Source: an uncultured Bacteroidales bacterium (GTDB taxonomy: Bacteria > Bacteroidota > Bacteroidia > Bacteroidales > UBA3824). From it: a stretch of 64,000 nt of DNA. The notes under the pieces are model-generated. The model was not told the origin of the DNA. It was given only the letters and a program-made list of their open reading frames with translations, and ran no database searches. The DNA lies in the NCBI GenBank assembly GCA_947168365.1, contig CAMVLO010000002.1, positions 68,770 through 132,769 on the forward strand, given 5' to 3'. Position 1 is the first letter of the stretch; each line of letters starts with the position of its first letter. Positions 10,318-41,905 of this stretch are shown here, in pieces. Made by a program: the position numbers and the translations under genes.

Positions 10318-10418
10318 ATTGCTTGAAAATTTTTGCAAAGATACTAAACTTATTGCAATTTTTGGTTTTTATAGTATAAGTGATTGACGTATTTGTTTTA
10401 AAACGTGATTTTTGTTGA

Positions 10419-25527: not shown

Positions 25528-25582
25528 TAAATTTTTCGGTTTTTCAGTGAATTTCGTTGTAAATTTTAAAAATTGTAAAATC

Positions 25583-27391: not shown

Positions 27392-27466
27392 TTTTTTTCT
27401 GTAATATTTTTGAAATTCTGTTGTCTAATATGCGGAATATTCCAAAACACATAAATTATTAAAATA

Positions 27467-29635
27467 ATGAAAAAACTGCTACTAATTTTAACCATCTTGT
27501 TGCCGATGATTGTTTCGGCACAAAAGACAATTGAAAACCCTGTAATCGGGGCAAAAGGCATTGGCACTCTGGGGCTTGCTATTGAAAAAATCGTTCTTCA
27601 AAACGATATGACAAAACTTTACATGGTGTATTATCATGGACAAGGCGGCAGTTTCAATATGAACGGTACTAGCCGTATTGTCGCTAATGGTAAGGAACTC
27701 AAAGTTATTTCGTCTGAGGGTATTGAGCTTAACGGTCCTTACATCCAAAAGTTCAACAATGAAGAAACACATTTTGTACTTAACTTTCCGGCTTTGGACA
27801 AGGACGTTGACAAAATCGATTTCATTGAAGATTATTGCCTTCAGTGTTTCAAAATTTTTGACATCGCGATTTCTGAAAAAGCTGTAAAAGAAAACAGTCA
27901 AAAAAGTACCGTTCCTGATGAAGTTCGCAATTATGCAAAAAGCATCAAGGACAACGGTCAAAGTCTTGAAAAAAATGACTTTACTTTTGATACGGCTGTT
28001 GTGAAAGGTAAAATTTACGGTTTTGACATCCGAATATTCGGAGATAAATTGAATCCGGAAATTGTGGTTTATTTTTACAATCCTTTTTTGGCGGAGCAAC
28101 TCTCGTATTCGGGACGAATCAACCACGACGGCACTTTCGAGGTAAAGGTGCCGATGACCAACAAGCATCAAGCCGTCTATGTGTCGGTTAACCCAATAAT
28201 CAGCAGCGATATCCTGATTTCCGCAGGCAAGACCGTAGAGGTCTATTTCGACTTTCTGCAGATTTACAAGCCGTGGGAACTGCCCGAAAGCCGTCTGATT
28301 CCGTATTTTGCGGGTGAGAATGTTGACATCAACTATGCCTTGTCGTTGGGCTTGTCGCGCAATCTATATCAGGAATTGATTATAAATCCGAATACTATTG
28401 ATAACGTTTCAAAATTTTCGATGGCGGAGTTCAAGGATTATGTCCTCAATTTTTTTGACAATTACAATTCCCGCATTGACGCAATTCCCGTCACCAAACG
28501 TGCGAAGGAATTTCTGAGGATTGATTTGAAAGTTAAAGAGGCGTATTACCTTTCGATGGGAAGCTATTGGATTGAGAGCGCGTACCGCAACATCCACGGC
28601 AAGGGTTACAAGGATCCAATCCCCGATTTTAAAAGGCCAGAGATTGGAACGGATTATTTGGACTATCCCAAACTTCTTGGCATAGATGATGTTATGATGT
28701 TTTACGCCAATGATTTTGGTTACAACATCACAGGCTGGTCAATGTGTTTTGAGCAGGTTTTCAACAAGTACAGATATTTGGACGAGTACGTTGCGTTGAA
28801 CTTCAACACGTGGATGGAGTTGGATAAATATCACAAAATTCCCAAAAAAGAACAATCGGTGTTCGCTTCCGTCAAACGAAAAATGAAAGACAAAGACACC
28901 TCCCGTACTGAGGCTGAAAAGGCTTTCACCAATAAATATGCGCGTGTAGTTGATCAGCACATTGAGGAAGTCGAAACCAAATGCGCCGAGGGTGCGGAAG
29001 ATTACAAAAACGAAATTTTTGGTGAGGGCGGCAGTTATTTCAAGGATTTTATCAAATTGCAAGAGTATTGCCGACCGTTTAGCCGTCAGACAGTTGTTCC
29101 CGATTCCATTGTCGCTGAAATTGAGAAAATGCGTTTCCCGTTTTATGCAGAATATGTCAAAGCCAAAAACGCCGAAATATTTGTCAAAATCGAGGCAGAA
29201 AAGGCTCGTGGCGGCTATCACGTTCATAAGGCGGGCGAAAGCGAAGGAGATTCCCTGTTTGTGGATTTGATAAAGGACTTCAAGGGCAAGGTGGTTTTGG
29301 TTGATTTTTGGAATACTTGGTGCGGCCCTTGCCGTCAAGCGATCAAACAGATGGAGCCTTTGGAAAAGTATTTTGAGGGCAAGGACGTTGAGTTTCTGTT
29401 TGTTGCCGACGAGACATCACCTATAGACGAGTACAACAGCATGATAGTTTCGATGAAAGGACATCATTATCGGTTAACAGAAAGTCAGGCAAGTTCGTTG
29501 AAACGCAAATGGAATTTTAACGGTATTCCTTCCTATGTCATTATTGGAAAAGACGGAATGGTAAAAGATTTTCATACCGGATTTCATGGTGCGGAATATT
29601 ACAGTCAAAAGATTGAAGAAGAGTTGAAAAAATAA
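27467..29635 (+). CDS. TlpA/ResA-like thiol:disulfide oxidoreductase lipoprotein/secreted protein, paralog family member C
   Basis: Signal peptide. C-terminal thioredoxin fold with FWNTWCGPC (29318-29332 encodes WCGPC). Confidence 0.8.
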   Translation: MKKLLLILTILLPMIVSAQKTIENPVIGAKGIGTLGLAIEKIVLQNDMTKLYMVYYHGQGGSFNMNGTSRIVANGKELKVISSEGIELNGPYIQKFNNEETHFVLNFPALDKDVDKIDFIEDYCLQCFKIFDIAISEKAVKENSQKSTVPDEVRNYAKSIKDNGQSLEKNDFTFDTAVVKGKIYGFDIRIFGDKLNPEIVVYFYNPFLAEQLSYSGRINHDGTFEVKVPMTNKHQAVYVSVNPIISSDILISAGKTVEVYFDFLQIYKPWELPESRLIPYFAGENVDINYALSLGLSRNLYQELIINPNTIDNVSKFSMAEFKDYVLNFFDNYNSRIDAIPVTKRAKEFLRIDLKVKEAYYLSMGSYWIESAYRNIHGKGYKDPIPDFKRPEIGTDYLDYPKLLGIDDVMMFYANDFGYNITGWSMCFEQVFNKYRYLDEYVALNFNTWMELDKYHKIPKKEQSVFASVKRKMKDKDTSRTEAEKAFTNKYARVVDQHIEEVETKCAEGAEDYKNEIFGEGGSYFKDFIKLQEYCRPFSRQTVVPDSIVAEIEKMRFPFYAEYVKAKNAEIFVKIEAEKARGGYHVHKAGESEGDSLFVDLIKDFKGKVVLVDFWNTWCGPCRQAIKQMEPLEKYFEGKDVEFLFVADETSPIDEYNSMIVSMKGHHYRLTESQASSLKRKWNFNGIPSYVIIGKDGMVKDFHTGFHGAEYYSQKIEEELKK

Positions 29636-29708: not shown

Positions 29709-30008
29709 ATGAGAAACTTACTACTGATTTTAACCATTATGACACTTGCGCTCGCATCGCGTGGACAAGTAAAATGCCATATCGAGGGCGAAATTATCGA
29801 CACCACACAGGGGTCAACTGTTATTTTGCATCCATACGATGTGGACATCCGTGCATCTGACGATTACATCAAAATAAAAGCCGATGCTCAAGGATGTTTC
29901 TCTTGTGATGTTTCGAGCAAGGAAATTACTCTTTACATCGCATTGTTGGAGGAACAAATTATGCAAGGACGTTGGATGGAAGGAAATCAGAAAGTCGTTG
30001 AATATTGA
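29709..30008 (+). CDS. Small secreted protein resembling the N-terminal domain of TlpA-like proteins (possible truncated paralog)
   Basis: Signal peptide, then VKCHIEGEIIDTTQGSTVILHPYD...ADAQGCFSCDV. This is the beta-sandwich pattern seen N-terminal to Bacteroidetes TlpA-like proteins. Only 99 aa. Confidence 0.4.
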   Translation: MRNLLLILTIMTLALASRGQVKCHIEGEIIDTTQGSTVILHPYDVDIRASDDYIKIKADAQGCFSCDVSSKEITLYIALLEEQIMQGRWMEGNQKVVEY

Positions 30009-30136
30009 ATAACGATTCATAGAACCAATAAAAATCTCAATTATCGATTTGGTTTTTTTGTTGGTTCTTTAATTTATTGATAATCACTTGTATAATCAAA
30101 CAAGGTGAAAATAATACATTTTTATTTGCAATCATA

Positions 30137-30400
30137 ATGATTCCGATGTTGATGGTTGCGTGTCAGAATAATGACAATAAAACTGAGGAGACTGCAATAG
30201 AATTTAATCTTACCGACATCCCGGAGGAACTGAAAATTAACAGCAGTGTCGGTTTCAATAAGAATACCAAAGTTTCAATTGGAGAGGTCGGACATTGTCG
30301 TTTGACATTTGAATCGCTTCCAAATGGTGTCAAACAGTTTGATTTTATTGCCGGCGATGTCAACGAAGTTATCAGAGTAGCAGATCTGAAAATATTTTGA
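30137..30400 (+). CDS. Small putative lipoprotein
   Basis: MIPMLMVACQNNDNK lipobox from the ATG at 30137. 87 aa, no other motif. Confidence 0.4.
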   Translation: MIPMLMVACQNNDNKTEETAIEFNLTDIPEELKINSSVGFNKNTKVSIGEVGHCRLTFESLPNGVKQFDFIAGDVNEVIRVADLKIF

Positions 30401-30401
30401 T

Positions 30402-30426
30402 ATTCGCCGAAGATTTTTCGGCGAAT
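30402..30426. promoter_or_regulatory. Perfect 10-bp-arm palindrome (terminator and/or operator) upstream of fic
   Basis: ATTCGCCGAA-gattt-TTCGGCGAAT, plus a third half-site TATTCGCCGAA at 30434-30444. Confidence 0.5.
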
Positions 30427-30476
30427 AATTGCGTATTCGCCGAAAAAATGTCATCTTTGTCAAAATATCAGTTTTT

Positions 30477-31565
30477 ATGTATTTGCACAAAAAAAATAAT
30501 TGGCAGAATTTCAGGTACAACAACGATTTGATTGTTAGTATTTTGGGTAAAATAAGACTTCTTCAGGGTATTTTGTTAGGTAAGTCTTGCCGTCTTGGAT
30601 TCAATGTCCAAAATGAAAAATATCTTGAAACATTATCTCTCGAAATTATCAAATCGTCAGAGATAGAGGGTGAAAGCCTTAATATCCAACAAGTACGCTC
30701 GTCTTTAGCGCGTCGTCTTGGTATTAATGCTGCGGGGCTTGTGCCGTCAGCAAGGTACATCGACGGCATTGTAGAGATGAATCTTGATGCCACGCGCAAT
30801 TACAATCAACCGCTCACTGATGAAAGGCTTTTCGGTTGGCACAACGTACTATTTCCGACCGGTAGGAGCGGACTTTACAAAATTGAAGTTGGCAGATACC
30901 GTACGCGCGAGATGGAAGTAGTGTCAGAGCCGATGGGCATGGAGACTGTTCATTATCAAGCTCCTTCGCCGGATAGAGTTCCCGAAGAAATGCAAAAGTT
31001 TTTAACGTGGTTCAATGCGGGCAATGATATGGATTTAGTCTTGAAAGCTGCAATAGCGCATTTTTGGTTTGTAACTATTCATCCTTTTGACGATGGCAAC
31101 GGGCGTATTGCTCGTGCGTTGACGGATATGTTGCTCGCCAAATCAGAGGATTCTCCGTTGAGGTTTTACAGTGTTTCCAACGAAATAAATGCGGATCGCA
31201 ACGGTTATTACAGTATCCTCGAAGATACTGAGACCGGTGACGGCGATATTACATATTGGTTGCAATGGTTTCTTGAAAGTCTCAGAAAATCAATTGATAA
31301 GTCTATAGTTACGATTGATAAGGTTTTGGATAAAACTGATTTTTTTGCAAAAATATCTTCGCTTGCTGTTAATCAGCGTCAAAAGAAAATCCTGACGATG
31401 CTTTTGGACGGATTTGACGGCAAACTCACCACTGCCAAATATGCGAAAATAAACAAATGTTCGCAAGATACGGCATTGAATGATATCAAATTCCTTATTG
31501 AAAATGGAATTCTCGAAAAGACCGCTGACAAAGGGAAAAATACAGGATATCAACTTTTAAATTAA
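30477..31565 (+). CDS. Fic family protein (DUF4172-type N-terminus)
   Basis: Core Fic motif HPFDDGNGRIARAL. C-terminal winged-helix-like tail. I prefer the ATG at 30477 (MYLHKKNNWQNF...). Confidence 0.85.
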   Translation: MYLHKKNNWQNFRYNNDLIVSILGKIRLLQGILLGKSCRLGFNVQNEKYLETLSLEIIKSSEIEGESLNIQQVRSSLARRLGINAAGLVPSARYIDGIVEMNLDATRNYNQPLTDERLFGWHNVLFPTGRSGLYKIEVGRYRTREMEVVSEPMGMETVHYQAPSPDRVPEEMQKFLTWFNAGNDMDLVLKAAIAHFWFVTIHPFDDGNGRIARALTDMLLAKSEDSPLRFYSVSNEINADRNGYYSILEDTETGDGDITYWLQWFLESLRKSIDKSIVTIDKVLDKTDFFAKISSLAVNQRQKKILTMLLDGFDGKLTTAKYAKINKCSQDTALNDIKFLIENGILEKTADKGKNTGYQLLN

Positions 31566-32717
31566 AAATCCGCCGATGAGGATATCGTCCATTTGGACGT
31601 AACCTCCTTTCCATTTGTCAATAAAATCAGAGAGTTGCTGTTTTTGATATTCTCCGGAAGTATTTTGCTTACAAAGCTCGGTCAAAAGCTCTTTCAATCG
31701 TCCGTAAGTTACCTTTCGTTTGGTTGTTCCGCTGAATTGGTCAGCAAATCCGTCTGAAAACATGTATAAGTAATCGCCTTTTTGGGCTTGAATTGTTACT
31801 GTTTCAAAAGTTTTGGGGCGCGGATGTTGACCAATCGGATTTTTTATGCCTTTGTATTCTGTGAGTTCGCCGTTTCTTACGATGTAAAGTGGATTGTTTG
31901 CTCCGGAAAACTTCAGTTCCAAAGTGTCAAGATTTAGTAGACAGAATGCCATATCCATTCCGTCTTTTGGCTCGTCTTCGCATTGATGTTGACTCAATGC
32001 ATTGATAATAAAGCCTCTCAAGTTTTCAAGAATTTCCGACGGTGAGGATTTTTCTGTGATATTGCTGCATACTTCATTAAGAAAAGTCACGCCCAAAAGA
32101 CTCATGAACGAACCCGGCACACCGTGTCCTGTACAATCCGCAATTGTGAATGCAATAATATTTCCGCAGCGTTTCATCCAATAAAAATCGCCTGAAACTA
32201 TTTCTCTTGGTCGCCAAAACAGAAAATAGTCGGTGAAAGCATTTTTCAGAATTTCTGTTGGCGGCAAAACTGCGAGTTGTATTCTTTGTGCGTACTTAAT
32301 ACTGTCTGTTACAGCGCGATGCTTGCGTTCTATTTCGTTTTTTAGGATATTGATATGTTCCTTTTCTTTTTGCATTTGAATGCTCATCGACCAAAGCCGC
32401 TTGTTTTTCTCGGAAAATTCTATTTTTTCTTGTTCAAGTTTCTTTTGTTCGAGTAAAATTGTTGCTGCATCTACATTTACTTGAGTGGAAATTTGGGTTT
32501 GTTTTTCTTCCTGTTTAGTGTTTTTAAGATGTTCATAAAGAGCATTTTGACGGTCGTAAGCATCTTTGTAAATGCGTATTTGTTGTTTCATACGGTTTTC
32601 GGTGCGACGTGCTGATTTTTGCGCAATATTTCTGTTACGAAAATACAGCACAATTGCTATCACTCCAAAAAGTAATGCTACAACTATCAGGATAATATCT
32701 AATGTATTGAGTGTCAA
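31557..32717 (-). CDS. Membrane-anchored PP2C-family (SpoIIE/RsbU-like) serine phosphatase with coiled coil
   Basis: N-terminal TM (LDIILIVVALLFGVIAIVLYF), a coiled-coil stretch, then KYAQRIQLAVLP, SGDFYW, ADCTGHGVPG and FSDGFADQ. The TTG start overlaps the upstream stop (TTGA). Confidence 0.85.
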   Translation of the reverse strand: MTLNTLDIILIVVALLFGVIAIVLYFRNRNIAQKSARRTENRMKQQIRIYKDAYDRQNALYEHLKNTKQEEKQTQISTQVNVDAATILLEQKKLEQEKIEFSEKNKRLWSMSIQMQKEKEHINILKNEIERKHRAVTDSIKYAQRIQLAVLPPTEILKNAFTDYFLFWRPREIVSGDFYWMKRCGNIIAFTIADCTGHGVPGSFMSLLGVTFLNEVCSNITEKSSPSEILENLRGFIINALSQHQCEDEPKDGMDMAFCLLNLDTLELKFSGANNPLYIVRNGELTEYKGIKNPIGQHPRPKTFETVTIQAQKGDYLYMFSDGFADQFSGTTKRKVTYGRLKELLTELCKQNTSGEYQKQQLSDFIDKWKGGYVQMDDILIGGFLI

Positions 32718-34057
32718 TTTATCTGTAGATTTTCTAAGTTTGGTACATTATAAACATAAACCACAGAACCTACTGTAGTATTTGTTGAGGTTGATAAGTT
32801 GGTAACTGTTTGATTTGTTACTTTTGTTAAGTAAACATTGTAACCCGAATCGGAATCTTTGAATGTCGCAAAACATGCTACTCCGTCATCGTAATCCATT
32901 GTAACATTTGTTACCAATTCTCCGTCTTCAGTCAATATCAAAATCGAACCTGACAAACTGCTCAATCTTGATAACAAATCGTTTAAGGAATTGATTGATG
33001 ACGAGCCGGAAATATTTACGCCGGAAAAACATATATTACCGTTCAATTCTGTGACGTTCAGATATATAGATTCAGCGATGTAAGATTCATCGTTTCGATA
33101 TATTTCGTTGCCTTCGCTGTCTGTTTTTATTATTATGCTTTGACTGCTGCTACTTGCCGAAATATATGCGTAATCGCCTATTCGTGAACATGTTAAAGGA
33201 TAATAATCTATTTGTGAGGATTTAATTTCGTTGCCGTTTAAATCAAATATTTTCAAATAGTATTGAGAGTTTTCGTTTTCGTAATAGATGAAAACATTGT
33301 TGTTGACCGAAATTACCTCCAAAATATTGATAGTTTCAGAAAATTGCAATTCATTTTCGCTAACCCATTCGCCGTTGCTGTTGATATATCGGAGCGTAAG
33401 ATTGTACGAACTTGTTTGCATCATTCCTTGGTTCGGAGTTTGAAGAATCATGGCGTAACCTCCATTGTCCAAAGGAGTTCCGTTGGTTGGAACTCTGTTT
33501 GTATTATTTTTCTGATCCATCATATTTCCGCCTGCCATAGAAACTATGCTGTCGATTTGGAAAATTTTGTTGCAATCTTTGTCAAATTTTATTACCGCAA
33601 AATATGTACGTCCGAACGAATTTGCTGAATAATATTCGATGAAAAATTCGTCATTTACATTTTTTGTGATTTTTCCCGAGGAGATGTCAACTTTCGTATG
33701 ATTAGTTTCTTCCGGGCTGGGATTATTATTGTTATTATTTTCTTTGTTGTCCTCTTGGTTAGATAAATTGCCGTTGTTTGGATTGAATTGATTATTTGTT
33801 TCTAAATTCCACGACATCGTAAATTCTGTGGAAGTGGTTTCTGCTTTTTTGTCGATTTTTACAAATTTATACGTTGTAGTGTCGCCTTCGGAAGTTACAG
33901 TAATTATCGAACCGTCAGAGCATGCCACGGGCGTATAAATCGAAGCATTTTCAATCGATTTTATTGGTGAATCTTCGTAGTCGGAATACACGGGTTCTTT
34001 CTGACATGATACTGATAACAAGGCAATTGCCGATAATATGTTGATTGTATTTTTCAT
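32714..34057 (-). CDS. Lipoprotein with repeated beta-propeller-like strands and an Asn-rich linker
   Basis: LLSVSCQKE lipobox. Recurrent D/N-x-x-G-N/E-h motifs (INSNGEWV, IFDLNGNEI, KTDSEGNEIY, LTEDGELV). Low-complexity segment NKENNNNNNPSPEE. Confidence 0.7.
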   Translation of the reverse strand: MKNTINILSAIALLSVSCQKEPVYSDYEDSPIKSIENASIYTPVACSDGSIITVTSEGDTTTYKFVKIDKKAETTSTEFTMSWNLETNNQFNPNNGNLSNQEDNKENNNNNNPSPEETNHTKVDISSGKITKNVNDEFFIEYYSANSFGRTYFAVIKFDKDCNKIFQIDSIVSMAGGNMMDQKNNTNRVPTNGTPLDNGGYAMILQTPNQGMMQTSSYNLTLRYINSNGEWVSENELQFSETINILEVISVNNNVFIYYENENSQYYLKIFDLNGNEIKSSQIDYYPLTCSRIGDYAYISASSSSQSIIIKTDSEGNEIYRNDESYIAESIYLNVTELNGNICFSGVNISGSSSINSLNDLLSRLSSLSGSILILTEDGELVTNVTMDYDDGVACFATFKDSDSGYNVYLTKVTNQTVTNLSTSTNTTVGSVVYVYNVPNLENLQIN

Positions 34058-34079
34058 TGCTTTTATTTTCCTCCTTTTA

Positions 34080-35252
34080 TTAAAATCCGTATCCGTATTT
34101 AGCTTTTACCGAGTATCCGAATTTAAATTTGTAACCTACTCTTATATTGAAAGTTGCTAAGTGGATTGCGTCCGGTACAAACATCTTGTTGTAAAGCAAG
34201 TTGTGATTGTAATAATTGTACTCCGCATTGTTGAACGGGCGCAACATGTAAGAGAAACTTGCATCTGCGAAAAATGTATTTTGATTGAAATTGCGGTTGA
34301 TTCTCAATCCGCCGAAAACCGAACAGTTTATTCTGTTTTTGGTTTTCAGATCAATACTGTTGTCGCTTATTGTATTTTGTTGAGATTCACCGTATTCGTT
34401 GTAAGATTCGTATTTGGTTTTCAGCAAATAGTTTTGTTGGAATCCTGCATAAAATTCGGGAACTATTTTTTCTTTTCGGGTTGGATAAGTGATTGTTACA
34501 TATACCGGAACAGTCAGTAAATGAGATGATTCCTTATACACAAATTTGTAATCCAATTTCATTGAATTGTAATAAAAACTGTGATTTTCGGTTCTGGTAT
34601 ATTGCATAAAATTGTATTGCAATCCGGCAGCTACCGACACAAATTTTGTAATATAATACTGAAATCCTATTTCCGCTATAAAACCTTCAGTAGAAGAATA
34701 GTCGGGTTTGTTTTTGGAGTCTTCGTTGATAACATGTACAGTATCAATTATTACCATCGGTGTTGAGAGTCCGAAATTTATCCATGTTGCAAAACGCGGA
34801 AATGTGTAGAAATTTTTCTTCATTTCCTTAAAAGGCATCGGGTCGCTAACTTGTGTTTCGTAAAACGGATTTTTCTTTAGAAACAATTTCGTAACAGAAT
34901 CGGCTTCACGGTCAAAACCGGCTTCTTTGAGCGTTGATGCATAATATTTTAGAAATTCGGAATTTTCTTTGCTATTGAATTTTGTTTTGTTTAATGTTTT
35001 TGCTGTTTTAATCGCCTCGCTGTATTTTCCGGCATTGTACAACCTTTTGAAATTATACAAAAGAGTTTCGTTGCTGTTGTCTTGAGTGTTTTCTGCAAAT
35101 TCCGCAGTGCCGGTTTCTCCATCGGAATTCAGATTGTCAAAAAAATCTTTGAAATCTAAATCACTTGCGGTGGAATCCGGATTTTGTGCGCTCATTTTCA
35201 GCGACATCATCACAGCTATTATTGTTAATATTAATATTTTTGACGTCTTCAT
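34080..35252 (-). CDS. Outer-membrane beta-barrel protein with N-terminal helical (TPR-like) region
   Basis: Signal peptide ending MSAQ. Alternating-hydrophobic strands in the C-terminal two thirds, ending in aromatic ...KAKYGYGF. Confidence 0.6.
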   Translation of the reverse strand: MKTSKILILTIIAVMMSLKMSAQNPDSTASDLDFKDFFDNLNSDGETGTAEFAENTQDNSNETLLYNFKRLYNAGKYSEAIKTAKTLNKTKFNSKENSEFLKYYASTLKEAGFDREADSVTKLFLKKNPFYETQVSDPMPFKEMKKNFYTFPRFATWINFGLSTPMVIIDTVHVINEDSKNKPDYSSTEGFIAEIGFQYYITKFVSVAAGLQYNFMQYTRTENHSFYYNSMKLDYKFVYKESSHLLTVPVYVTITYPTRKEKIVPEFYAGFQQNYLLKTKYESYNEYGESQQNTISDNSIDLKTKNRINCSVFGGLRINRNFNQNTFFADASFSYMLRPFNNAEYNYYNHNLLYNKMFVPDAIHLATFNIRVGYKFKFGYSVKAKYGYGF

Positions 35253-35272
35253 ATTTTTTTTCTCTCTTTTTT

Positions 35273-38200
35273 TTACAATTCTTCTTTGGAGAATTCCTTT
35301 CCTAAAATCAGTTCTTTTTCTTCGGCTGAAAGCGGGTCCAGCTTTTGGTTGAATGTTTTTAATATTCTGGCGTAACTCTTAATATCTGTATTCCAAAAAC
35401 GAATCAATTTGTCTTCGGTAAGCGCAAAAATCATTCCTTTGGTATTGAAACTCATGTTTTTGACTTTGAATCCGTTGAGCGCGTGATCCTCAATATTCAG
35501 AATTTTGCTGTTTTCAATATCTTTGGTATCTATCAGCGAAATCCTTTTGTCGGCACTCGCTACTGCTAACAGTTGCGTATTCTTATCGTAAAACATATTT
35601 TCGATTTGAGAATGTGCGCAAACTTTGGTGCAGGTCTGTTTGTCGTTTTTGGTATTGAAAAATACTACATTTCCGTTTGAAACGCCGATTACAATCAGAT
35701 TTTTGTCGGGAATTGATGTCAGCGCAAATGCGTAGTTGCCCGGCGATTCGTAAATCGGTGTGGCTTCGCCCGTTTCGGGATTCCATTTCATAAGTTCGCT
35801 GGTGTGTGTTGCCAAATAGATATTGTTGTCAACAATACAGAATTCCGACACTTTGGATTGCGATGTAAATTCGTGTGACGGCTTTTCTTTGGGTTCGTAT
35901 GGATTCAATACCAAGATTTTGCCGTTGTTGAATGACAGTATGATATGTTTTTGGTCGCTTGTAAAAGTAGCGGCTGTTACATAATCTTTTATTGTTTTCA
36001 GTTGTGTTGATTTTTTATTATCGATGTCAACAAAATAAATGGATTTGTCTTTCATCGAAACCAACGCGTATTTGTCAGAAAGTAATATCGCTTTCAGTAC
36101 CGGTGCTTTGTTTTCGTTGACATTAAATGTCTTAATCAATTTTGCCTTGTTGGCTCCGAGTGCGTAAGTGCTGATTTGTGCATCATTTGTTATCAGACAT
36201 ATTTGATTGGCATTATTGATTTTGAATGTTGAGATATTTTTGGGAACATCTTTTAATATATTGTCGAAAACTTGTTGTTGTTCTATGGCGTAAAGCATTG
36301 CATCATAAAGTATTGCATCGTTGTTTCTGATATTGCGTTTTTCGCTGAGTTTGTATGCTGCCCAAGCAAGTTTCAGATTTAGTTCTTTGTCTTCGTATTG
36401 ATTTTTTGCATTCATAGCCAACATGTTGCAAAGTGTGATGTCATAAAGACGTTCCGAAGAATCTTTCGCCATTTTAGCATCTTTTTCACCTCTTTCGGCA
36501 CGCTCTTGAGCATCCTTTGCATTTCTCTCACCGGTTTCGGCACGCAAAAGGTTGGATAACGCTTGTTTTTCAGCTTTTTCGGCTCGTGAACGTTCTTCGT
36601 TGGCTTGTAAGAGTGCGCGTTCGGTAGCTTGTTGAGCAAGTCGGGCTTTTTGTTCTTCGTCGCGGGCATTTTGAGCGGCAATTTCTGCGGCTTCTTGCGC
36701 ATCATTGGCTTTTTGTCGCTCTGTTTCGGCTTCCAAACGTTTTTCTTCGGTTTTGGCTCTTTGTATTTCGGCAAGCTTTTGAGAATCTTCGGCTTTTGAC
36801 TTTTCTCTCATTGCCCAACCCGAAAACAAAAGCATTGTTACAATAAAGGCTATTGCGACAGCAATTATGGTTTTGAACTTACGCTTTTTAGCTTCTTCTT
36901 TTTCTAAAATTGCTTTTTTACTTGCCTCGATATAGTCAATACAATTTTCAAAATGAGTTGTTGCCTTTTCGATTTTTTCTTTTTCGGAAATTTTGCTGTT
37001 GTCGTACCTTGCAAGCCAATACGCATTGGGACGGCTTTTCTGATACCAATCGTTGAAATAGTTGTAAGAACCCGTAGGCAACAGATATTCTGCGCTTTGC
37101 TCGTGATGAAGCCAGCGTTTTACTTGTGCATCAAAATCATAAAAATCTTTTTGATTGTTTTCCATCTCGTAGCCCCACGATGCCAACATCTTCCAGTTAC
37201 GGATTAACGCCTCGTGAGTGATATCCAAAACAGTATCACCGCTAAGATATTGAGATTCAAAATTGTCCGGCTCGCTAAACGGGCGCAACAATGTGTTTTC
37301 GGGACTGCGGAATATATTGATAACGCCGCAAACTGTAGCGTTGTTAACATTGTCTTTGTTTATCATGCCCGTGATTTCGTCGAGAGTGCTGCGGTTTCTT
37401 ACAGGACGGTTGTTGTCTATTTTTACAAGACTTTTGAAAACCGTTTCAATAATTTGTTTACTCTCTTCGCGGGTGATATTCTTGGGAGCCCAACTTGCAT
37501 TCTGCTGAAAATGGTCGTAAGCCGATTCGTACAAAATTCCGGCGTGAGCGTTGAGAACATTGTTGAGGTCGGGCTTTTCAAAATACTTTTTCTCGTAATC
37601 GGGAAGTTTGGCAAACCATTGGTCAAAATCTTTTTGTTCTTCGTCGGAAAGTACATCTCTTGAAATTCCTGCAATTTTGGCAAGGTGCAACAAGTCAAGC
37701 TGTTTTTTGCCGTTGTCAGCCATTTTCCAAAGCAGATTGAGAGCGTGTTGAAGTACAGGAAGTTGGTCGGCACCGTCGTTGATATTATTTACAATTACTT
37801 CTGTAAGACGCGGCGATACACTTCCGCCCGCAAGTGTTGCAGGTTCTTCTATTACTTGACATATTTCCGTACGTTTTAGTTGAGGTACAAAAAACTGACT
37901 GTAGGCTATAAATTCAGGAAGATGTTTGAATACCGTACACTGACTTATAAAGTCACTACGCATTGTAAATGCCACATAGACAGGCAATTTTTGTGTAACA
38001 GCAATTCTTACGGTTTCCAAAAGAAGATTTATTGTAGTATAACATTCTTCGCTTGGGATTCCGTTGTTGAAATTATCTGAATTTGTAAAAACCTCTTCAA
38101 ATTGGTCGGCAATTATCAGAAGGTTTTTACCTCGATTAGCAGCGTCATCGCCTTCAGTTACATAAAAACCGTTCTTTTTGTACAAGTCAATTACAGAAGA

Positions 38201-38542
38201 AAATCCGTGGCTGAGTTCTTCAAGACAAGTATCATAATCAAGATCGGCATTTTGAGCAATAGACAGCGCAAGCGAAGCAAGAGGATTTCTCTGAGGTTTG
38301 AAATCTGCAATTATCCAGCTGTTGAAATCTGCCTTGAAAAATCCGGCTCTGATATACGGAACAACACCGGCATAAACCATCGATGATTTTCCGTCGCCGG
38401 AGGCTCCCGTGATGAAAACCATTTTGTTTTCTTCCAACAGTTTTACAATTTGACGTATATGTAAATCCCTGCCTTTGAAGAAAATCGATTCTTCTTCGGT
38501 AAAAGGTCTTAAACCCGGATATGGACAGATATTGGTTTTCAT
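35273..38542 (-). CDS. STAND (NLR-like) NTPase with internal TM helix, long charged coiled coil and C-terminal WD40-like beta-propeller
   Basis: CPYPGLRPFTEEESIFFKGRD, then ITGASGDGKSS (Walker A) and LLIIADQFEEVFT (Walker B). TM KFKTIIAVAIAFIVTMLLFSGWAM (about 36806-36880). E/A/K/R/Q-rich coiled coil (about 36440-36800). WD-like strands LLAVASADKRISLIDT and IFALTEDKLIRFWNT. Confidence 0.8.
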   Translation of the reverse strand: MKTNICPYPGLRPFTEEESIFFKGRDLHIRQIVKLLEENKMVFITGASGDGKSSMVYAGVVPYIRAGFFKADFNSWIIADFKPQRNPLASLALSIAQNADLDYDTCLEELSHGFSSVIDLYKKNGFYVTEGDDAANRGKNLLIIADQFEEVFTNSDNFNNGIPSEECYTTINLLLETVRIAVTQKLPVYVAFTMRSDFISQCTVFKHLPEFIAYSQFFVPQLKRTEICQVIEEPATLAGGSVSPRLTEVIVNNINDGADQLPVLQHALNLLWKMADNGKKQLDLLHLAKIAGISRDVLSDEEQKDFDQWFAKLPDYEKKYFEKPDLNNVLNAHAGILYESAYDHFQQNASWAPKNITREESKQIIETVFKSLVKIDNNRPVRNRSTLDEITGMINKDNVNNATVCGVINIFRSPENTLLRPFSEPDNFESQYLSGDTVLDITHEALIRNWKMLASWGYEMENNQKDFYDFDAQVKRWLHHEQSAEYLLPTGSYNYFNDWYQKSRPNAYWLARYDNSKISEKEKIEKATTHFENCIDYIEASKKAILEKEEAKKRKFKTIIAVAIAFIVTMLLFSGWAMREKSKAEDSQKLAEIQRAKTEEKRLEAETERQKANDAQEAAEIAAQNARDEEQKARLAQQATERALLQANEERSRAEKAEKQALSNLLRAETGERNAKDAQERAERGEKDAKMAKDSSERLYDITLCNMLAMNAKNQYEDKELNLKLAWAAYKLSEKRNIRNNDAILYDAMLYAIEQQQVFDNILKDVPKNISTFKINNANQICLITNDAQISTYALGANKAKLIKTFNVNENKAPVLKAILLSDKYALVSMKDKSIYFVDIDNKKSTQLKTIKDYVTAATFTSDQKHIILSFNNGKILVLNPYEPKEKPSHEFTSQSKVSEFCIVDNNIYLATHTSELMKWNPETGEATPIYESPGNYAFALTSIPDKNLIVIGVSNGNVVFFNTKNDKQTCTKVCAHSQIENMFYDKNTQLLAVASADKRISLIDTKDIENSKILNIEDHALNGFKVKNMSFNTKGMIFALTEDKLIRFWNTDIKSYARILKTFNQKLDPLSAEEKELILGKEFSKEEL

Positions 38543-39408
38543 AATGCCGTTTTTGCAGTTGTTTTGTCAAAAAATACTTTGATATCCAACGGTAAAAGGC
38601 TGATTTCGTGAATTATTGTTTCGATAATTCCGTCAAAAATTTTCAGTTCTTCTTCGTTGGCATGTGCGCTGTTGCCCACCAAAAAAATCGGAGTTTTGCC
38701 GGATTGACCACCGTTGTCTTTCCACACTTGTCTTGCAAACGATACCGCCCAATCGCCGGCATAATTATAATATATCACTCCAATTTTGCAGCCGGAGAGT
38801 TGATTTTTGATATATTCGGTATAATCGATATTGCTGTTCATAGATATTCCGAGAGTAGTTACAGTTTGAATATCTTCCAACATGTGGGAAATCTCTTCAG
38901 CTGTTTGCTTGTCTAAATCGTTGTAAATAAAAAAGATGTCTTTGTGTTGAATTTCTTGTTGAACTTCGGTACGGATATTCATAATCGTTCTGAGTTCTTC
39001 TACAAAAACAATCGCAGAAGTTTTGGACGAGTAAATAGTGTTTTCTACAATTTCGCGTCTGATATTGTTGATATACTTATTGTTGTCAGTAATCTGTCCC
39101 GACGGATTCCATACAAACATCTTGAAAGTTTTGCTTCTGAGATTTTTTGCCAATCGGTATTGTTTGCCGGCATTGCTGTTGAAACCTTTGCCTTGAGGGT
39201 CGTAAATATCTACGTTGCCCAATAGATGTATCGAACAATCTGATTGTTGCATCAATTGTATATCAGTATCCTCGTTGCCGGACGAGTTGAAAACCTTGAT
39301 TCCGGCTTTTCCCAAAATAATACATAGCTTATTTTTCGTTTCCGACATATCGTTAGAAACATCGGCAACAAATACTTTTATTTCATGTGTAAATAAGCTA
39401 ATATCCAT
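38539..39408 (-). CDS. Two-domain protein: DUF4062-like N-terminal domain plus TIR-like C-terminal domain
   Basis: N-terminus KVFVADVSNDMSETKNKL...SDCSIHLLGN follows the DUF4062 pattern. C-terminus DIFFIYNDLDKQTAEEISHML...IGVIYYNYAGDWA follows the TIR beta-A/alpha-A start. The stop overlaps the STAND gene start (ATGA). Confidence 0.55.
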   Translation of the reverse strand: MDISLFTHEIKVFVADVSNDMSETKNKLCIILGKAGIKVFNSSGNEDTDIQLMQQSDCSIHLLGNVDIYDPQGKGFNSNAGKQYRLAKNLRSKTFKMFVWNPSGQITDNNKYINNIRREIVENTIYSSKTSAIVFVEELRTIMNIRTEVQQEIQHKDIFFIYNDLDKQTAEEISHMLEDIQTVTTLGISMNSNIDYTEYIKNQLSGCKIGVIYYNYAGDWAVSFARQVWKDNGGQSGKTPIFLVGNSAHANEEELKIFDGIIETIIHEISLLPLDIKVFFDKTTAKTAL

Positions 39409-39461
39409 CTTTTGTTTTACTTTGTAATTGTTTTTACATGCATTAATGATACCATTTGACG

Positions 39462-39469
39462 CAAATTTA
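39462..39469 (-). promoter_or_regulatory. TAnnTTTG -7 box for the 39408-31557 operon
   Basis: The minus strand reads TAAATTTG, about 54 nt upstream of the ATG at 39408. Confidence 0.4.
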
Positions 39470-39601
39470 AGATTTTTTTTCTTAATCGAATCAAATAAAT
39501 TGCTAAAAAAAGTAAAAGGTTCGATTATTTGTGTAATTTTGTCCCGATTTTCTAATCAGAAACAATACACGTATTTTATTAATTTAACACAAATCACATC
39601 A

Positions 39602-39949
39602 ATGGAAAACAACGAACAAAACACCGTAAATATAGCCGGTGAGAACACTGCTAACGAGTTGGAAAACAAAGAACAGTCAATCGCAGTAAATGTAGATGAA
39701 GCACAACAAAAGATGTCACAAGCCGATATTGATAGAGAAATGAGACGAATGCAATACCAGGTAAAAAACGCCATAGCGGCACAAGGTGGAAAAGGAATTG
39801 TTATCGGTTTGCTTTTGATTATAGTTGGTGCAATTTTTACATTTACTTCAACTACAAAAATATATATCGGCGCATTTATAGTCGGCGGTATTTACATCGT
39901 GAAAGGTATTTATCATTTGATAAAAGCAGCACGAATTAAGATTAGATGA
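39602..39949 (+). CDS. Small membrane protein (two C-terminal TM helices)
   Basis: From ATG 39602: MENNEQNTVNIAG..., then GIVIGLLLIIVGAIFTF and IYIGAFIVGGIYIVKGIY. Confidence 0.55.
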   Translation: MENNEQNTVNIAGENTANELENKEQSIAVNVDEAQQKMSQADIDREMRRMQYQVKNAIAAQGGKGIVIGLLLIIVGAIFTFTSTTKIYIGAFIVGGIYIVKGIYHLIKAARIKIR

Positions 39950-40095
39950 GTCGTGAAATGTTCCGGGGAATTTATAATCAACCTCGGTTTCATCATCGCA
40001 GTCCCGAAGGGACGGCATAAAATATCCGGGGGTGTTGTCGGCAACGACAAAAACCCCCGGATAATTGACGCATTAATTTCGAAGTAACGGTGATA

Positions 40096-40131
40096 TAAAA
40101 AAAGAGCGGAACGATAAAATCGAACCGCTCT
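40096..40131 (-). terminator. Rho-independent terminator of the 40155-40892 gene
   Basis: On the minus strand, an AGAGCGG...CCGCTCT stem followed by T7. Confidence 0.7.
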
Positions 40132-40154
40132 AATTGTTAGAGTGTCAAAAGGAA

Positions 40155-40892
40155 TTAAGAATTTGTTACCTCCGTTTTTACCTCGGTGTCAGTAGACACT
40201 TCGGTAGTAGAGTTTTTGTTTAATCCCTTCGATTTGTCAAACAATTCGTTGATAATCAATGCAAACTCGTTGCATGACTTAGGAGCTATATAAGCATTAT
40301 ATGCGTTGACATAATCTGCAAATTCGCCCCATGCTTTGTTCAAAGCATCGCGTGCGCCCGGTTTGTAACCCTTATTCGCTTGGTAATAATTACCTCTTAA
40401 GTCGTATAAACTTTCGTGTTTATCCAACAAATTTGCTACTATTGACAATAAGATGTCAATACTAAGTGTTTTGAGAGCCGGTTTCCCAAGTTGATTAAAC
40501 TCGTTTAATTGTCGTTTAATTTTTTCAATTTTCTTAAACAAATTATTTCCTTTGAGAATGCCGTATTTGTCAACAATCTCTTTGGCTGTCTTTGCGAGAT
40601 CCGAAATTTGTGTTTCCGGATTATACACATTGGCAGTGATAATCTGTCTAATTGAATTAAAGACATTAAACATCTGTTTCCTCACCTCGGTAAGCTCTAC
40701 CGTATAAGGGTTGGTTCTCTGTTTTTCAACAGCTGTTACCAACAAATTGTAGTTTTCAGTGAAATTTTTAGCATATTCACTGTTTCGTACTTCTTCAGGC
40801 AACTTTCCCAAAGTTGCGAGTGCTCGTGCCGCGAAGTACAGCGTTTCTAGGTTCGAAAACCTAACGAGACTTTTTAAACAAAAGTAGTTCAT
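40155..40892 (-). CDS. Hypothetical all-helical protein (possibly the Bacteroidota-specific DUF6261-like family; from memory only)
   Basis: 245-aa ORF with an ATG start and its own terminator. Segment VRNSEYAKNF resembles the LRNxEHxxF motif of that family. Thr/Glu/Val-rich tail. Confidence 0.6.
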   Translation of the reverse strand: MNYFCLKSLVRFSNLETLYFAARALATLGKLPEEVRNSEYAKNFTENYNLLVTAVEKQRTNPYTVELTEVRKQMFNVFNSIRQIITANVYNPETQISDLAKTAKEIVDKYGILKGNNLFKKIEKIKRQLNEFNQLGKPALKTLSIDILLSIVANLLDKHESLYDLRGNYYQANKGYKPGARDALNKAWGEFADYVNAYNAYIAPKSCNEFALIINELFDKSKGLNKNSTTEVSTDTEVKTEVTNS

Positions 40893-41239
40893 AGTGTTTA
40901 AAAATTTAAAAGTGTTAATAAATAAAGTTAATTATAATTGCCTAATGATTTAATTACAACCGACTGTTTTATTCTTTTTTGCTATTCTCTATTATTTCGA
41001 GTCGGAATTACGTTTGTTCAATCAATTAGAACACTACAATGATACAAAATCTTTTTTAATTGTGCAAATCTTTGCTATTCAATGACTTCTATAATCTATC
41101 AAAAATCATATAAAAATATCCGTTTTTGTAGTAAAATTCGCCTTTACAGATACTTGTGGCGGTTTTTGTTAAAAAATATTAAATTATATAATTGATTATC
41201 AAACAGATATGTAATTCTTGCTGATTTTGACATCTTTTT

Positions 41240-41765
41240 GTTTGAAAAATTCTTGGAATTCTTGAAAATTGTATCGCTACGAGAAATGAAAATTCTTGGA
41301 ATTCTTGAAAATTGTATCGCTACAAGAAATGAAATTACCGGAAATTATTAATCTTGTATCGCTACAAGAAATGAAATTACCGGAAATTATTAATCTTGTA
41401 TCGCTACAAGAAATGAAATTACCGGAAATTATTAATCTTGTATCGCTACAAGAAATGAAATTACCGAAAATTATTAATCTTGTATAGCTACAAGAAATGA
41501 AATTACCGGAAATTATTAATCTTGTATCGCTACAAGAAATGAAATTACCGAAAATTATTAATCTTGTATCGTTACAATAAAGGAAATTACCGGAAATTAT
41601 TAATCTTGTATCGCTACAATAAAGGAAATTTCCGGAAATTATTAATCTTGTATCGCTACAATAAAGGAATTTTCTGAAAATTATTAATCTTGTCACGCGA
41701 CAAGAAAGGAAATTATCGGGAATTATGAATCTTGTTGCGACAATATTTTGTATTTTCTGACATCT
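41240..41765. repeat. Tandem array of 12 units, 42-bp period, two dyad motifs per unit
   Basis: The GTATCGCTAC core recurs at 41271, 41314, 41356, 41398, 41440, 41482, 41524, 41566, 41608, 41650, 41692 and 41734. Consensus unit: CTTGTATCGCTACAAGAAATGAAATTACCGGAAATTATTAAT. Confidence 0.9.
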
Positions 41766-41905
41766 TGTCTTATTATATTCTGTCAAAAAGTTAGTCGATT
41801 GTCATTTTTTGTGACAGTTTGTCATTAAAATTTATTCGGTACGGGGTTTGATTGTTGGCATTCGGAAATTTTAATTTAAGTAAAACATCTAAAACTATAT
41901 AAAAT

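Follow-up and report, generated by a model that had tools for sequence, protein, structure and literature searches.

A five-gene operon on the minus strand (31557-39408) of a 64,000-nucleotide stretch of DNA from an uncultured Bacteroidales bacterium (lineage UBA3824; GenBank assembly GCA_947168365.1, contig CAMVLO010000002.1, forward-strand positions 68,770 to 132,769) may encode a single trans-envelope signalling device, working from the outside in and organised around a STAND (NLR-like) nucleotide switch, a reading to which we give an even chance. The whole stretch is called the window below, and nucleotide (nt) positions are counted from its first letter. The open reading frame (ORF) listing of the window gave the genes, here g1 to g5 in that order on the minus strand, as g1 (38539-39408, 289 aa), g2 (35273-38542, 1089 aa), g3 (34080-35252, 390 aa), g4 (32714-34057, 447 aa) and g5 (31557-32717, 386 aa), with ATG starts in the first four and a TTG start in g5. 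An earlier note on this DNA had described packed minus-strand ORFs with 4-bp overlaps and gaps of 20-22 nt, and the listing confirmed it: g1 and g2 overlap by 4 nt (ATGA, 38539-38542), g4 and g5 do likewise (TTGA, 32714-32717), and gaps of 20 nt and 22 nt separate g2 from g3 and g3 from g4. All of the peptide motifs quoted in that note were present in the translations (CPYPGLRPF, FFKGRD, GASGDGKSS, LLIIADQFEE, YGYGF and the lipobox SVSC). We regard the genes as one functional unit because of the 4-nt overlaps, the 20-22 nt gaps, the recurrence of the cassette and the full gene order in a second locus (L015; loci carry L numbers here, and individual protein relatives P numbers). Since the arrangement recurs in other genomes, it goes beyond chance, and co-transcription of g1-g5 as one unit is predicted.

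At the centre of this device stands g2, in which Pfam matches and hydrophobic-segment analysis upheld the claimed STAND NTPase with a transmembrane helix, coiled coil and WD40 propeller. Residues 7-297 (nt 37652-38524) match nSTAND1 (PF20703) at E = 1.5e-64, with 219.4 bits against a curated cut-off of 27.1, and a helical middle region (residues 298-553) leads from there to the only hydrophobic helix in the protein (residues 554-579, nt 36806-36883). The 123-residue charged coiled coil that follows (residues 583-705, nt 36428-36796) consists to 67% of A, E, K, R and Q, contains no Pro and, by arithmetic estimate, would measure about 180 Å as a single helix; beyond it lies a WD40 β-propeller (approximately residues 768-1071, nt 35330-36241) that is matched by many β-propeller Pfam models. 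The Walker A motif GxSGxGKSS (G46, S48, G49, G51, K52, S53, S54) and the Walker B motif DQFEE (D146, Q147, F148, E149, E150) were invariant in a diverse alignment, which suggests that the NTPase is a competent switch. A PDB sequence search with the NTPase returned nothing useful.

The NTPase of g2 is predicted to be cytoplasmic and its coiled coil and propeller periplasmic, because the NTPase needs cytoplasmic ATP and because the residues before the transmembrane helix are more basic than those after it. In nearly all of the 150 best g2 relatives a single transmembrane helix occupies the same position, just past the NTPase module. Independent support for a periplasmic C-terminus came from what follows the helix in two relatives, as GldM and LysM domains act outside the cytoplasm: P0144 has the architecture nSTAND1, transmembrane helix and third domain of GldM (GldM_3rd), and a g1-nSTAND1-transmembrane-WD40 fusion (L093, 9017-13759) carries LysM at its terminus. 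The partner genes lend further support to this topology, as one codes for a protein with a signal peptide and the other for a lipoprotein.

The functional link between g1 and g2 was settled by relatives in which the two are fused, as parts of one protein. Seven g2 relatives, all cluster representatives, have an N-terminal extension of approximately 260-330 residues, and six of these extensions match the g1 hidden Markov model (HMM), namely P0188 (2.6e-44), P0203 (6e-37), P0233 (5e-24) and, more weakly, P0216, P0230 and P0242; across P0188, P0203, P0233 and P0216, the E-values run from 3e-44 to 3e-11. The seventh, P0257, matched g1 weakly and by BLASTP only. Fusions of g1 and g2, 1505-1580 aa in length, also occur in four metagenome loci (L091, L093, L095 and L096). 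The absence of g1 from L001-L005 by tblastn, together with two lone g1 homologs, had at first suggested that g1 was an accidental neighbour, a reading that the metagenome scan described below and the fused proteins overturned.

The earlier note had proposed examining whether the neighbourhood is conserved across Bacteroidota, and the five genes proved to be co-localised in many other genomes, with g1 and g2 fused in distant relatives. A genome scan yielded five relatives, all in metagenome-assembled genomes (MAGs) from the ruminant gut and four of them labelled Bacteroidales. Three of these loci (L002, L003 and L004) hold the cassette g2-g3-g4-g5 without g1, duplicated in tandem in L002 and L004, and the rumen cassettes are flanked by iPGM and DNA polymerase I. 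Look-ups with g1 and g4 homologs added the full g1-g5 order of L015 and a cassette without g1 in L016, and the 4-nt g4/g5 overlap with its TTG start was found in homologous loci as well. For the metagenome scan, an NTPase-domain alignment was used to choose 79 loci by NTPase similarity alone, and their ORFs were searched with iterated HMMs of the five proteins. Among the metagenome loci of the WD40 class (g2 of approximately 1085 aa), g1 lay directly upstream in all 12 with enough flank, g3 lay downstream in 12/12 and g5 was present in 11 of the 12 that could be assessed; the NTPase identity of these 12 loci ranged from 56 to 99%. The order was permuted to g1-g2-g5-g3-g4 in five loci.

The second class of g2 relatives (approximately 1350 aa) has a C-terminus without a Pfam match, and in its loci a long g1 relative leads into two STAND genes in tandem. 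Here g3 was found in none of 23 loci and g5 in two of 23; the PP2C thus goes with the envelope module. The long g1 relatives of this class carry extra TIR_2 domains or a nucleotide-cyclase domain plus TIR_2. In two of them (L044, 1417-3018; L047, 1876-4065), a TIR_2-like domain, scoring just under threshold, stands ahead of the DUF4062-like and C-terminal domains, and one of the two has an adenylate/guanylate cyclase domain in addition. A cultured organism, Hymenobacter volaticus (CP095061; L100, 4892-14322), holds this class as a 535-aa g1 relative, a truncated nSTAND1 of 385 aa and a second nSTAND1 of 1058 aa, adjoined on the opposite strand by three SLATT-domain genes. In another locus (L012), an nSTAND1-WD40 gene is parted from a g1-like gene that scores above the DUF4062 threshold by genes for an N6/N4 methyltransferase and for a restriction enzyme of the R.HinP1I type (9565-11102). 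The sources of NTPase homologs were Bacteroidales, Bacteroidia, Chitinophagaceae, Hymenobacter, Flavobacteriales, Saprospiraceae and Rhodothermaceae, and the g2 family is broadly Bacteroidota with close neighbours; the last of the homolog searches, with the NTPase profile, returned mainly gene fragments and is usable for organism names only. A 1680-nt contig (L005) with 61% identity to g2 bears a Treponema sp. MAG label, which is probably a binning error, the other named sources being Bacteroidota or Rhodothermaceae.

Divergence from the window proteins followed the predicted compartments. Over the rumen cassettes L001-L004, identity to g2 was 79-85% in the NTPase and 60-75% in the middle region, falling to 37-44% in the transmembrane helix and coiled coil and to 33-47% in the WD40 propeller, and L015 and L016 went lower still in some segments. 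Over all compared loci, identity was 26-45% for g3, 21-47% for g4 and 52-62% for g5. The same gradient appeared between two cassettes within one genome (L002 A/B and L004 A/B): the cytoplasmic part of g2 was 79-80% identical between paralogues and g5 61-62%, with 35-36% for the periplasmic part of g2, 27-29% for g3 and 25% for g4. As the envelope parts have diverged together and the cytoplasmic parts have stayed alike, the pattern supports cognate contacts among g3, g4 and the propeller of g2, as well as several insulated channels per genome. It fits an arms race or differing ligands alike.

The two envelope partners of g2 are a predicted outer-membrane protein and a lipoprotein. For g3, the claimed signal-peptide β-barrel held at family level only. 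Its N-terminal hydrophobic segment reads as a signal peptide (residues 1-22), a family profile places a TPR-like region resembling the N-terminus of BamD at about residues 60-130, and a C-terminal outer-membrane β-barrel is predicted at about residues 150-390, with YGYGF as its aromatic tail. Eight of 22 g3 homologs matched OMP_b-brl_2 (PF13568; best 6.4e-9) and three of 22 OMP_b-brl, and the last residue was aromatic or His in 20 of 27 homologs. The family profile matched the BamD N-terminal TPR of 9n2d_F (E = 0.002), and g3 itself matched NCBIfam OMP_TP0733 (E = 0.002); g3 of the window had no significant Pfam match, and a PDB search with it as a single sequence gave nothing useful.

The description of g4 as a lipobox protein with propeller-like repeats was supported by an AlphaFold 2 (AF2) model and Foldseek. 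The lipobox Cys18 (LSVSC; codon 34004-34006), invariant in 12/12 aligned sequences, is followed by an acidic stretch, which hints at a Bacteroidota export signal, and g4 may be surface-exposed. An Asn-rich low-complexity linker (residues 86-120) precedes the β-propeller (about residues 129-438, nt 32744-33673). The AF2 model is an all-β propeller (predicted local distance difference test score, pLDDT, 75.7; predicted template modelling score, pTM, 0.75), and its Foldseek matches were the propellers CylK, NHL, WDR91 and PLL/PHL lectins, with E-values from 1e-10 to 1e-6. Among 5.8 billion proteins, g4 had only 11 homolog clusters; in divergent loci its position is filled by lipoproteins of 380-409 aa with lipobox-type N-termini.

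The last gene, g5, was claimed to encode a PP2C phosphatase with a transmembrane helix and coiled coil, and the claim was substantiated by matches to Pfam SpoIIE and to a solved structure. A transmembrane anchor (residues 5-27, nt 32637-32705) with basic residues after it is followed by a coiled coil (about residues 30-140) and a PP2C/SpoIIE phosphatase domain (residues 114-384, nt 31566-32378; PF07228, E = 6.9e-17, 62.5 bits against a cut-off of 25). The anchor and the basic stretch are conserved in homologs, as are the PP2C motifs GDF, DxxGHG (here DCTGHG), S/TDG (here SDG) and a C-terminal DD. Because the basic residues come after the N-terminal helix, the PP2C domain is predicted to be cytoplasmic, a polarity opposite to that of g2. 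Among solved structures the closest relative is 6k4e (E = 4.7e-28), an entry deposited under the name "Putative serine phosphatase" that we take to be the PP2C domain of SiaA from Pseudomonas aeruginosa. Against the NCBIfam SiaA model (NF038263), g5 scored 154.7 bits, over its C-terminal PP2C part only, where the equivalog cut-off is 700; we rejected g5 as a SiaA orthologue because this score is far under the cut-off and no Sia partners were found. A DUF4172-Fic-HTH gene on the plus strand (30429-31565) runs towards g5, and the 3' ends of the two genes share 9 nt (31557-31565).

The g1 protein was described in the earlier note as DUF4062-like plus TIR-like, which was supported at the level of family and fold. 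It is a cytoplasmic protein without a transmembrane helix, and its AF2 model (pLDDT 88.9) consists of two tandem five-stranded flavodoxin/TIR-like α/β domains. With the whole two-domain model, Foldseek gave mostly spurious two-domain matches, so that only single-domain matches were usable; the best of these were bacterial TIR domains (PdTIR, TcpB and BtTir; template modelling scores 0.52-0.60), with receiver domains close behind. Although g1 of the window had no match in Pfam, NCBIfam or PADLOC, Pfam DUF4062 (PF13271) was matched by 18 of 39 members of its family (best 1.7e-10), and the distant relative P0113 exceeded the DUF4062 threshold (41.4 bits against 24.7) over residues 11-95, a segment that also weakly matches TIR_2 and CAP12-PCTIR_TIR. 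A PDB sequence search with the g1 profile yielded nothing useful.

DUF4062, renamed NIR, has been reported as a TIR-like NADase defence effector in three 2026 preprints, which describe such domains as the NADase effectors of Avs, Swarozyc and Evangelion, enriched beside defence genes. The catalytic Glu given there is E97 in KpSwz, E108 in PsAvs2 and E87 in Eva01, the first two corresponding to the third by the authors' descriptions, and the change E108Q abolished defence by PsAvs2. The g1-family HMM aligned to Eva01 (E = 3e-8), whose sequence was taken from plasmid pMW2 (L099:3863-4837) and in which F11, E87 and Y88 were confirmed. In this alignment, Q83-Y84 of g1 domain 1 (residues 10-145, nt 38974-39381), a DUF4062-like domain, stand opposite E87-Y88, and the conserved N-terminal aromatic F13 stands opposite F11. 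The Tyr after the catalytic position is thus retained and the Glu is not: of 67 family members, 56 have Q at position 83 and two have E. Domain 2 (residues 156-288, nt 38545-38943) holds the most conserved motif of the family, DWAVSFARQVWKDNGG. Its αC Trp (W220) is present in 66/66 aligned sequences, and Phe (F224) stands at the +4 position in 62 of 67. We take canonical TIR NADases to carry their catalytic Glu at this very position, four residues past the αC Trp (SxWCxxEL).

We therefore treated g1 as a non-catalytic module, because the catalytic Glu is replaced in both domains. It is a probable adaptor or regulatory module with a TIR-like fold, and the output of the system is probably not NAD+ depletion. 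The effector role that the earlier note had implied for a TIR/DUF4062 protein is doubtful, given the Gln at the catalytic position in g1 and most of its family; with Q83 there, an active NADase was rejected as the default reading.

In the mechanism that we propose for a trans-envelope device, g2 would reside in the inner membrane, with the nSTAND1 NTPase in the cytoplasm and approximately 120 residues of coiled coil carrying the WD40 propeller into the periplasm. There the propeller would contact an outer-membrane module composed of the g3 barrel, with its periplasmic TPR region, and the g4 propeller lipoprotein. A change at the outer membrane or cell surface, whether a ligand, damage or attack, would be passed inward through the propeller and coiled coil, releasing the NTPase for nucleotide exchange and oligomerisation. 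The oligomer would then assemble g1, which in other lineages forms the N-terminus of g2, as a tandem TIR-like, non-catalytic adaptor or regulatory module. This assembly would in turn control the membrane-anchored PP2C g5, which would reset the phosphorylation of a putative cytoplasmic target. Surface attack by phage, type VI secretion systems (T6SS) or bacteriocins is one candidate trigger; damage to the envelope and an external ligand, for example a glycan, are others.

Several observations weigh against this mechanism. Counted over all sources, g1 lies beside approximately 15 of the 22 WD40-class cassettes that could be assessed and is missing beside seven (in L001, L002, L004 and L016), and orphan g1 genes occur in L006, L009 and L101. 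Because g1 is missing beside these cassettes and orphan copies are found elsewhere in the same genome, g1 is not strictly required in cis. One MAG (GCA_017417315.1; L004, L006 and L101) holds two tandem cassettes without g1, a third nSTAND1-WD40 gene and two orphan g1 genes, which suggests that g1 can act in trans; one of these orphans is followed by genes for a 296-aa protein, YqeY, SpoU and a TPR protein, a context shared by L009, and Fic genes lie near the orphan g1 of L006. The triad g3-g4-g5 also stands without a STAND gene in L018/L019 (365-7633), where two GH43 glycoside hydrolase genes immediately precede it on its own strand. The 79 loci of the metagenome scan were not dereplicated, and one (L020) repeats the window operon with 99% identity. 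The assignment of g3 as a periplasmic TPR region plus outer-membrane barrel was drawn at family level, from family-level or sub-threshold matches. Gln at the catalytic position of g1 is no proof of inactivity, and g1 may have a Gln-using activity. Finally, no kinase, STAS or SiaC-like partner for g5 was found in the operon or scanned neighbours.

The earlier note placed STAND NTPases of this kind in anti-phage conflict systems and suggested a sensor of invasion or damage, which would fit the predicted topology. The operon could serve abortive-infection immunity against invaders: the envelope module would detect adsorbing or injecting phage, T6SS attack or damage by bacteriocins, the STAND protein would oligomerise, g1 or another effector would kill or arrest the cell, and the PP2C would only tune the threshold. 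We consider this unlikely. In its favour, the nSTAND1 family comes from work on predicted conflict systems, DUF4062 domains serve as NADase effectors and are enriched beside defence genes, and long g1 relatives carry TIR_2 and nucleotide-cyclase domains; restriction-modification genes are inserted between g1 and g2 in L012, the Hymenobacter locus has SLATT genes beside it, the operon of the window adjoins a Fic gene, and the envelope parts evolve fast. Most of these defence-like neighbours belong to the approximately 1350-aa class, however, which comes without the barrel and almost always without the PP2C, and the effector itself is in question, with Gln for the catalytic Glu of DUF4062 throughout the family and domain 2 likewise without Glu at its TIR αC position. 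Among the 5027 models of PADLOC-DB v2.0.0, no significant match to any of the five proteins was found, the sole match being JetC to the g5 coiled coil (E = 0.038). The flanks in the window and related loci are housekeeping genes (HtpG, iPGM, PolA, FolB, ATP synthase); around the operon the window holds htpG and genes for thioredoxin-like proteins, a histidine kinase, Wza/Wzc-type export and peptidase S46, and no tRNA gene or mobile-element mark was seen in it. With the PADLOC check empty and the flanks housekeeping, the anti-phage framing draws on the reputation of the protein families.

The operon could also encode an envelope machine working from the inside out instead of a sensor, in which ATP turnover by g2 would drive the barrel and lipoprotein through the coiled coil so as to tether, assemble or remodel the outer membrane, analogous to TolA-TolB-Pal or the BAM accessory proteins. 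The long Pro-free periplasmic helix of g2, the BamD-like TPR region of g3, the propeller fold of the g4 lipoprotein (BamB and TolB are propellers), the GldM periplasmic domain in one relative and the housekeeping chromosomal context would all suit such a machine. STAND NTPases are established as slow nucleotide-dependent switches rather than motors, however, and the conserved g1 module and the PP2C would have no role. The envelope parts also diverge too fast for a core biogenesis machine, g4 having only its 11 homolog clusters, and several diverged paralogous cassettes per genome fit sensing better; we thus hold an inside-out machine to be quite improbable. More improbable by far is that the g1-g2 pair and the g3-g4-g5 triad are two independent units that are merely adjacent in this lineage. 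The triad without a STAND gene in L018/L019, the g1-g2 pairs of the approximately 1350-aa class without the triad and the orphan g1 genes are what such adjacency would produce. Nevertheless, g3 stays downstream of WD40-class g2 in 12/12 loci and g5 in 11/12 at 56-99% NTPase identity, the linkage survives permuted gene order, the intergenic gaps of the window operon are 20-22 nt, and the periplasmic part of g2 diverges together with g3 and g4.

The earlier note knew of no described system that joins these modules, and, supplementary tables aside, we found no paper describing the combination; likewise, the main texts on nSTAND1 and DUF4062 describe no membrane-spanning nSTAND1, periplasmic WD40 sensor or linkage to a barrel, lipoprotein and PP2C. 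Parts of the operon do resemble known systems. The nSTAND1 family (PF20703) was defined in predicted conflict systems by Kaur, Iyer, Burroughs and Aravind (eLife 2021, PMC8195603), and g2 shares with these both the NTPase family (E = 1.5e-64) and the tripartite logic of an N-terminal effector or adaptor, an NTPase and C-terminal repeats. In the operon, however, the N-terminal module is a separate gene, g1, and the main text of that paper mentions no transmembrane helix after the NTPase, no periplasmic sensor and no barrel, lipoprotein or PP2C linkage. The DUF4062 (NIR)-STAND-repeat proteins, among which we compared PsAvs2, the eukaryotic TEP1/NWD1/NWD2 (DUF4062-NACHT-WD40), Swarozyc and Evangelion, have the same module order of DUF4062-like domain, STAND NTPase and WD40, which is divided here between g1 and g2. 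The operon differs from them in the Gln that replaces the catalytic Glu, a second TIR-like domain after the first in g1, an NTPase of the nSTAND1 rather than NACHT/Avs type, the transmembrane helix between NTPase and propeller, and a phosphatase as partner; unlike those proteins, the window g1 also falls under the Pfam DUF4062 threshold. Canonical cytoplasmic NLR-like and Avs receptors keep their sensor repeats in the compartment of the NTPase, whereas the predicted topology of g2 puts a transmembrane helix between the two.

SiaA, the membrane PP2C of the SiaABCD partner-switch network in Pseudomonas aeruginosa, is like g5 in being membrane-anchored with a C-terminal PP2C domain. However, g5 has one transmembrane helix and a coiled coil in place of the sensor/HAMP region of SiaA, and SiaB, SiaC and SiaD partners were not found among the operon genes or scanned neighbours. 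RcsF-OMP-IgaA, Tol-Pal and the TonB-dependent transducer/anti-sigma systems each have an inner-membrane protein that reaches far into the periplasm and reads or drives a module of barrel and lipoprotein. The proposed device may work like these systems, a resemblance that involves no sequence relationship, and we know of none among them with a STAND NTPase, TIR-like module or PP2C. Toll-like receptors offer an analogy of topology only, with a repeat sensor outside the cytoplasm, one transmembrane helix and a TIR-type module inside; they have leucine-rich repeats and no NTPase, whereas the TIR-like part of the operon is N-terminal, upstream of the STAND switch, and whole-protein homology is not implied.

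Taken against these systems, the operon may represent the first STAND/NLR-type receptor with its sensor outside the cytoplasm, a claim that we put forward tentatively, at somewhat less than an even chance. Such a receptor would combine NLR and Toll-like-receptor logic, with a periplasmic WD40 propeller reading a barrel-lipoprotein pair, an ATP switch, a dead DUF4062/TIR tandem as adaptor and a PP2C as output, and its diversified cassettes would form a repertoire for surface surveillance.

The box that the earlier note placed before the first gene is present as TAAATTTG on the minus strand (39462-39469), 54 nt ahead of the ATG of g1, and it matches the Bacteroides -7 promoter consensus TAnnTTTG. 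The window has more TAnnTTTG than expected (122 matches against 87 +/- 8.6), but a single occurrence proves little, and the evidence for its role as a promoter, which we assume from published knowledge of Bacteroides promoters, is weak. Terminator-like hairpins in the operon region were not in excess (10 against 8.2 +/- 3.7 in shuffled sequence), and the two on the minus strand inside the operon are both weak. A sigma-70 promoter scan was uninformative, as expected for Bacteroidota, with 25 sites against 25.5 expected, and an Rfam search over 30000-42500 returned nothing. The G+C content of the window is approximately 36%. Beyond the operon, a tandem repeat with a 42-bp unit, 11.1 copies and 91% matches (41269-41735) lies in the intergenic region between a DUF6261 gene (40155-40892, minus strand) and htpG (41906-43972, plus strand), and a spurious 169-aa ORF (41277-41786) runs through it. 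On the other side, two adjacent large proteins of 614 and 722 aa (25547-29635, plus strand), each with a C-terminal thioredoxin-like domain, are probably paralogous envelope redox proteins.

The operon represents STAND/NLR-like signalling in a new layout and is not categorically new. STAND/NLR proteins are textbook intracellular receptors. The operon recombines relatives of STAND and of DUF4062/NIR in such a way that the sensor would lie beyond the inner membrane with outer-membrane partners, the NADase residue is lost and a phosphatase is the likely output. That DUF4062/NIR is an NADase effector, in human TEP1 as well as in bacterial immunity, has been newly reported in the 2026 preprints. 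Specialists would not expect an NLR-type switch to have its sensor outside the cytoplasm and to be joined to a degenerate NIR/TIR module, and the compact operon, which yields clear predictions for topology, contacts and phosphatase targets, is directly testable. If our reading is true, it would extend the NLR principle to surveillance of the cell envelope and provide a natural case of a TIR-like domain turned into a non-catalytic adaptor. It would also reveal an as yet unstudied route of signalling that Bacteroidales of the gut and rumen and environmental Bacteroidota commonly possess.

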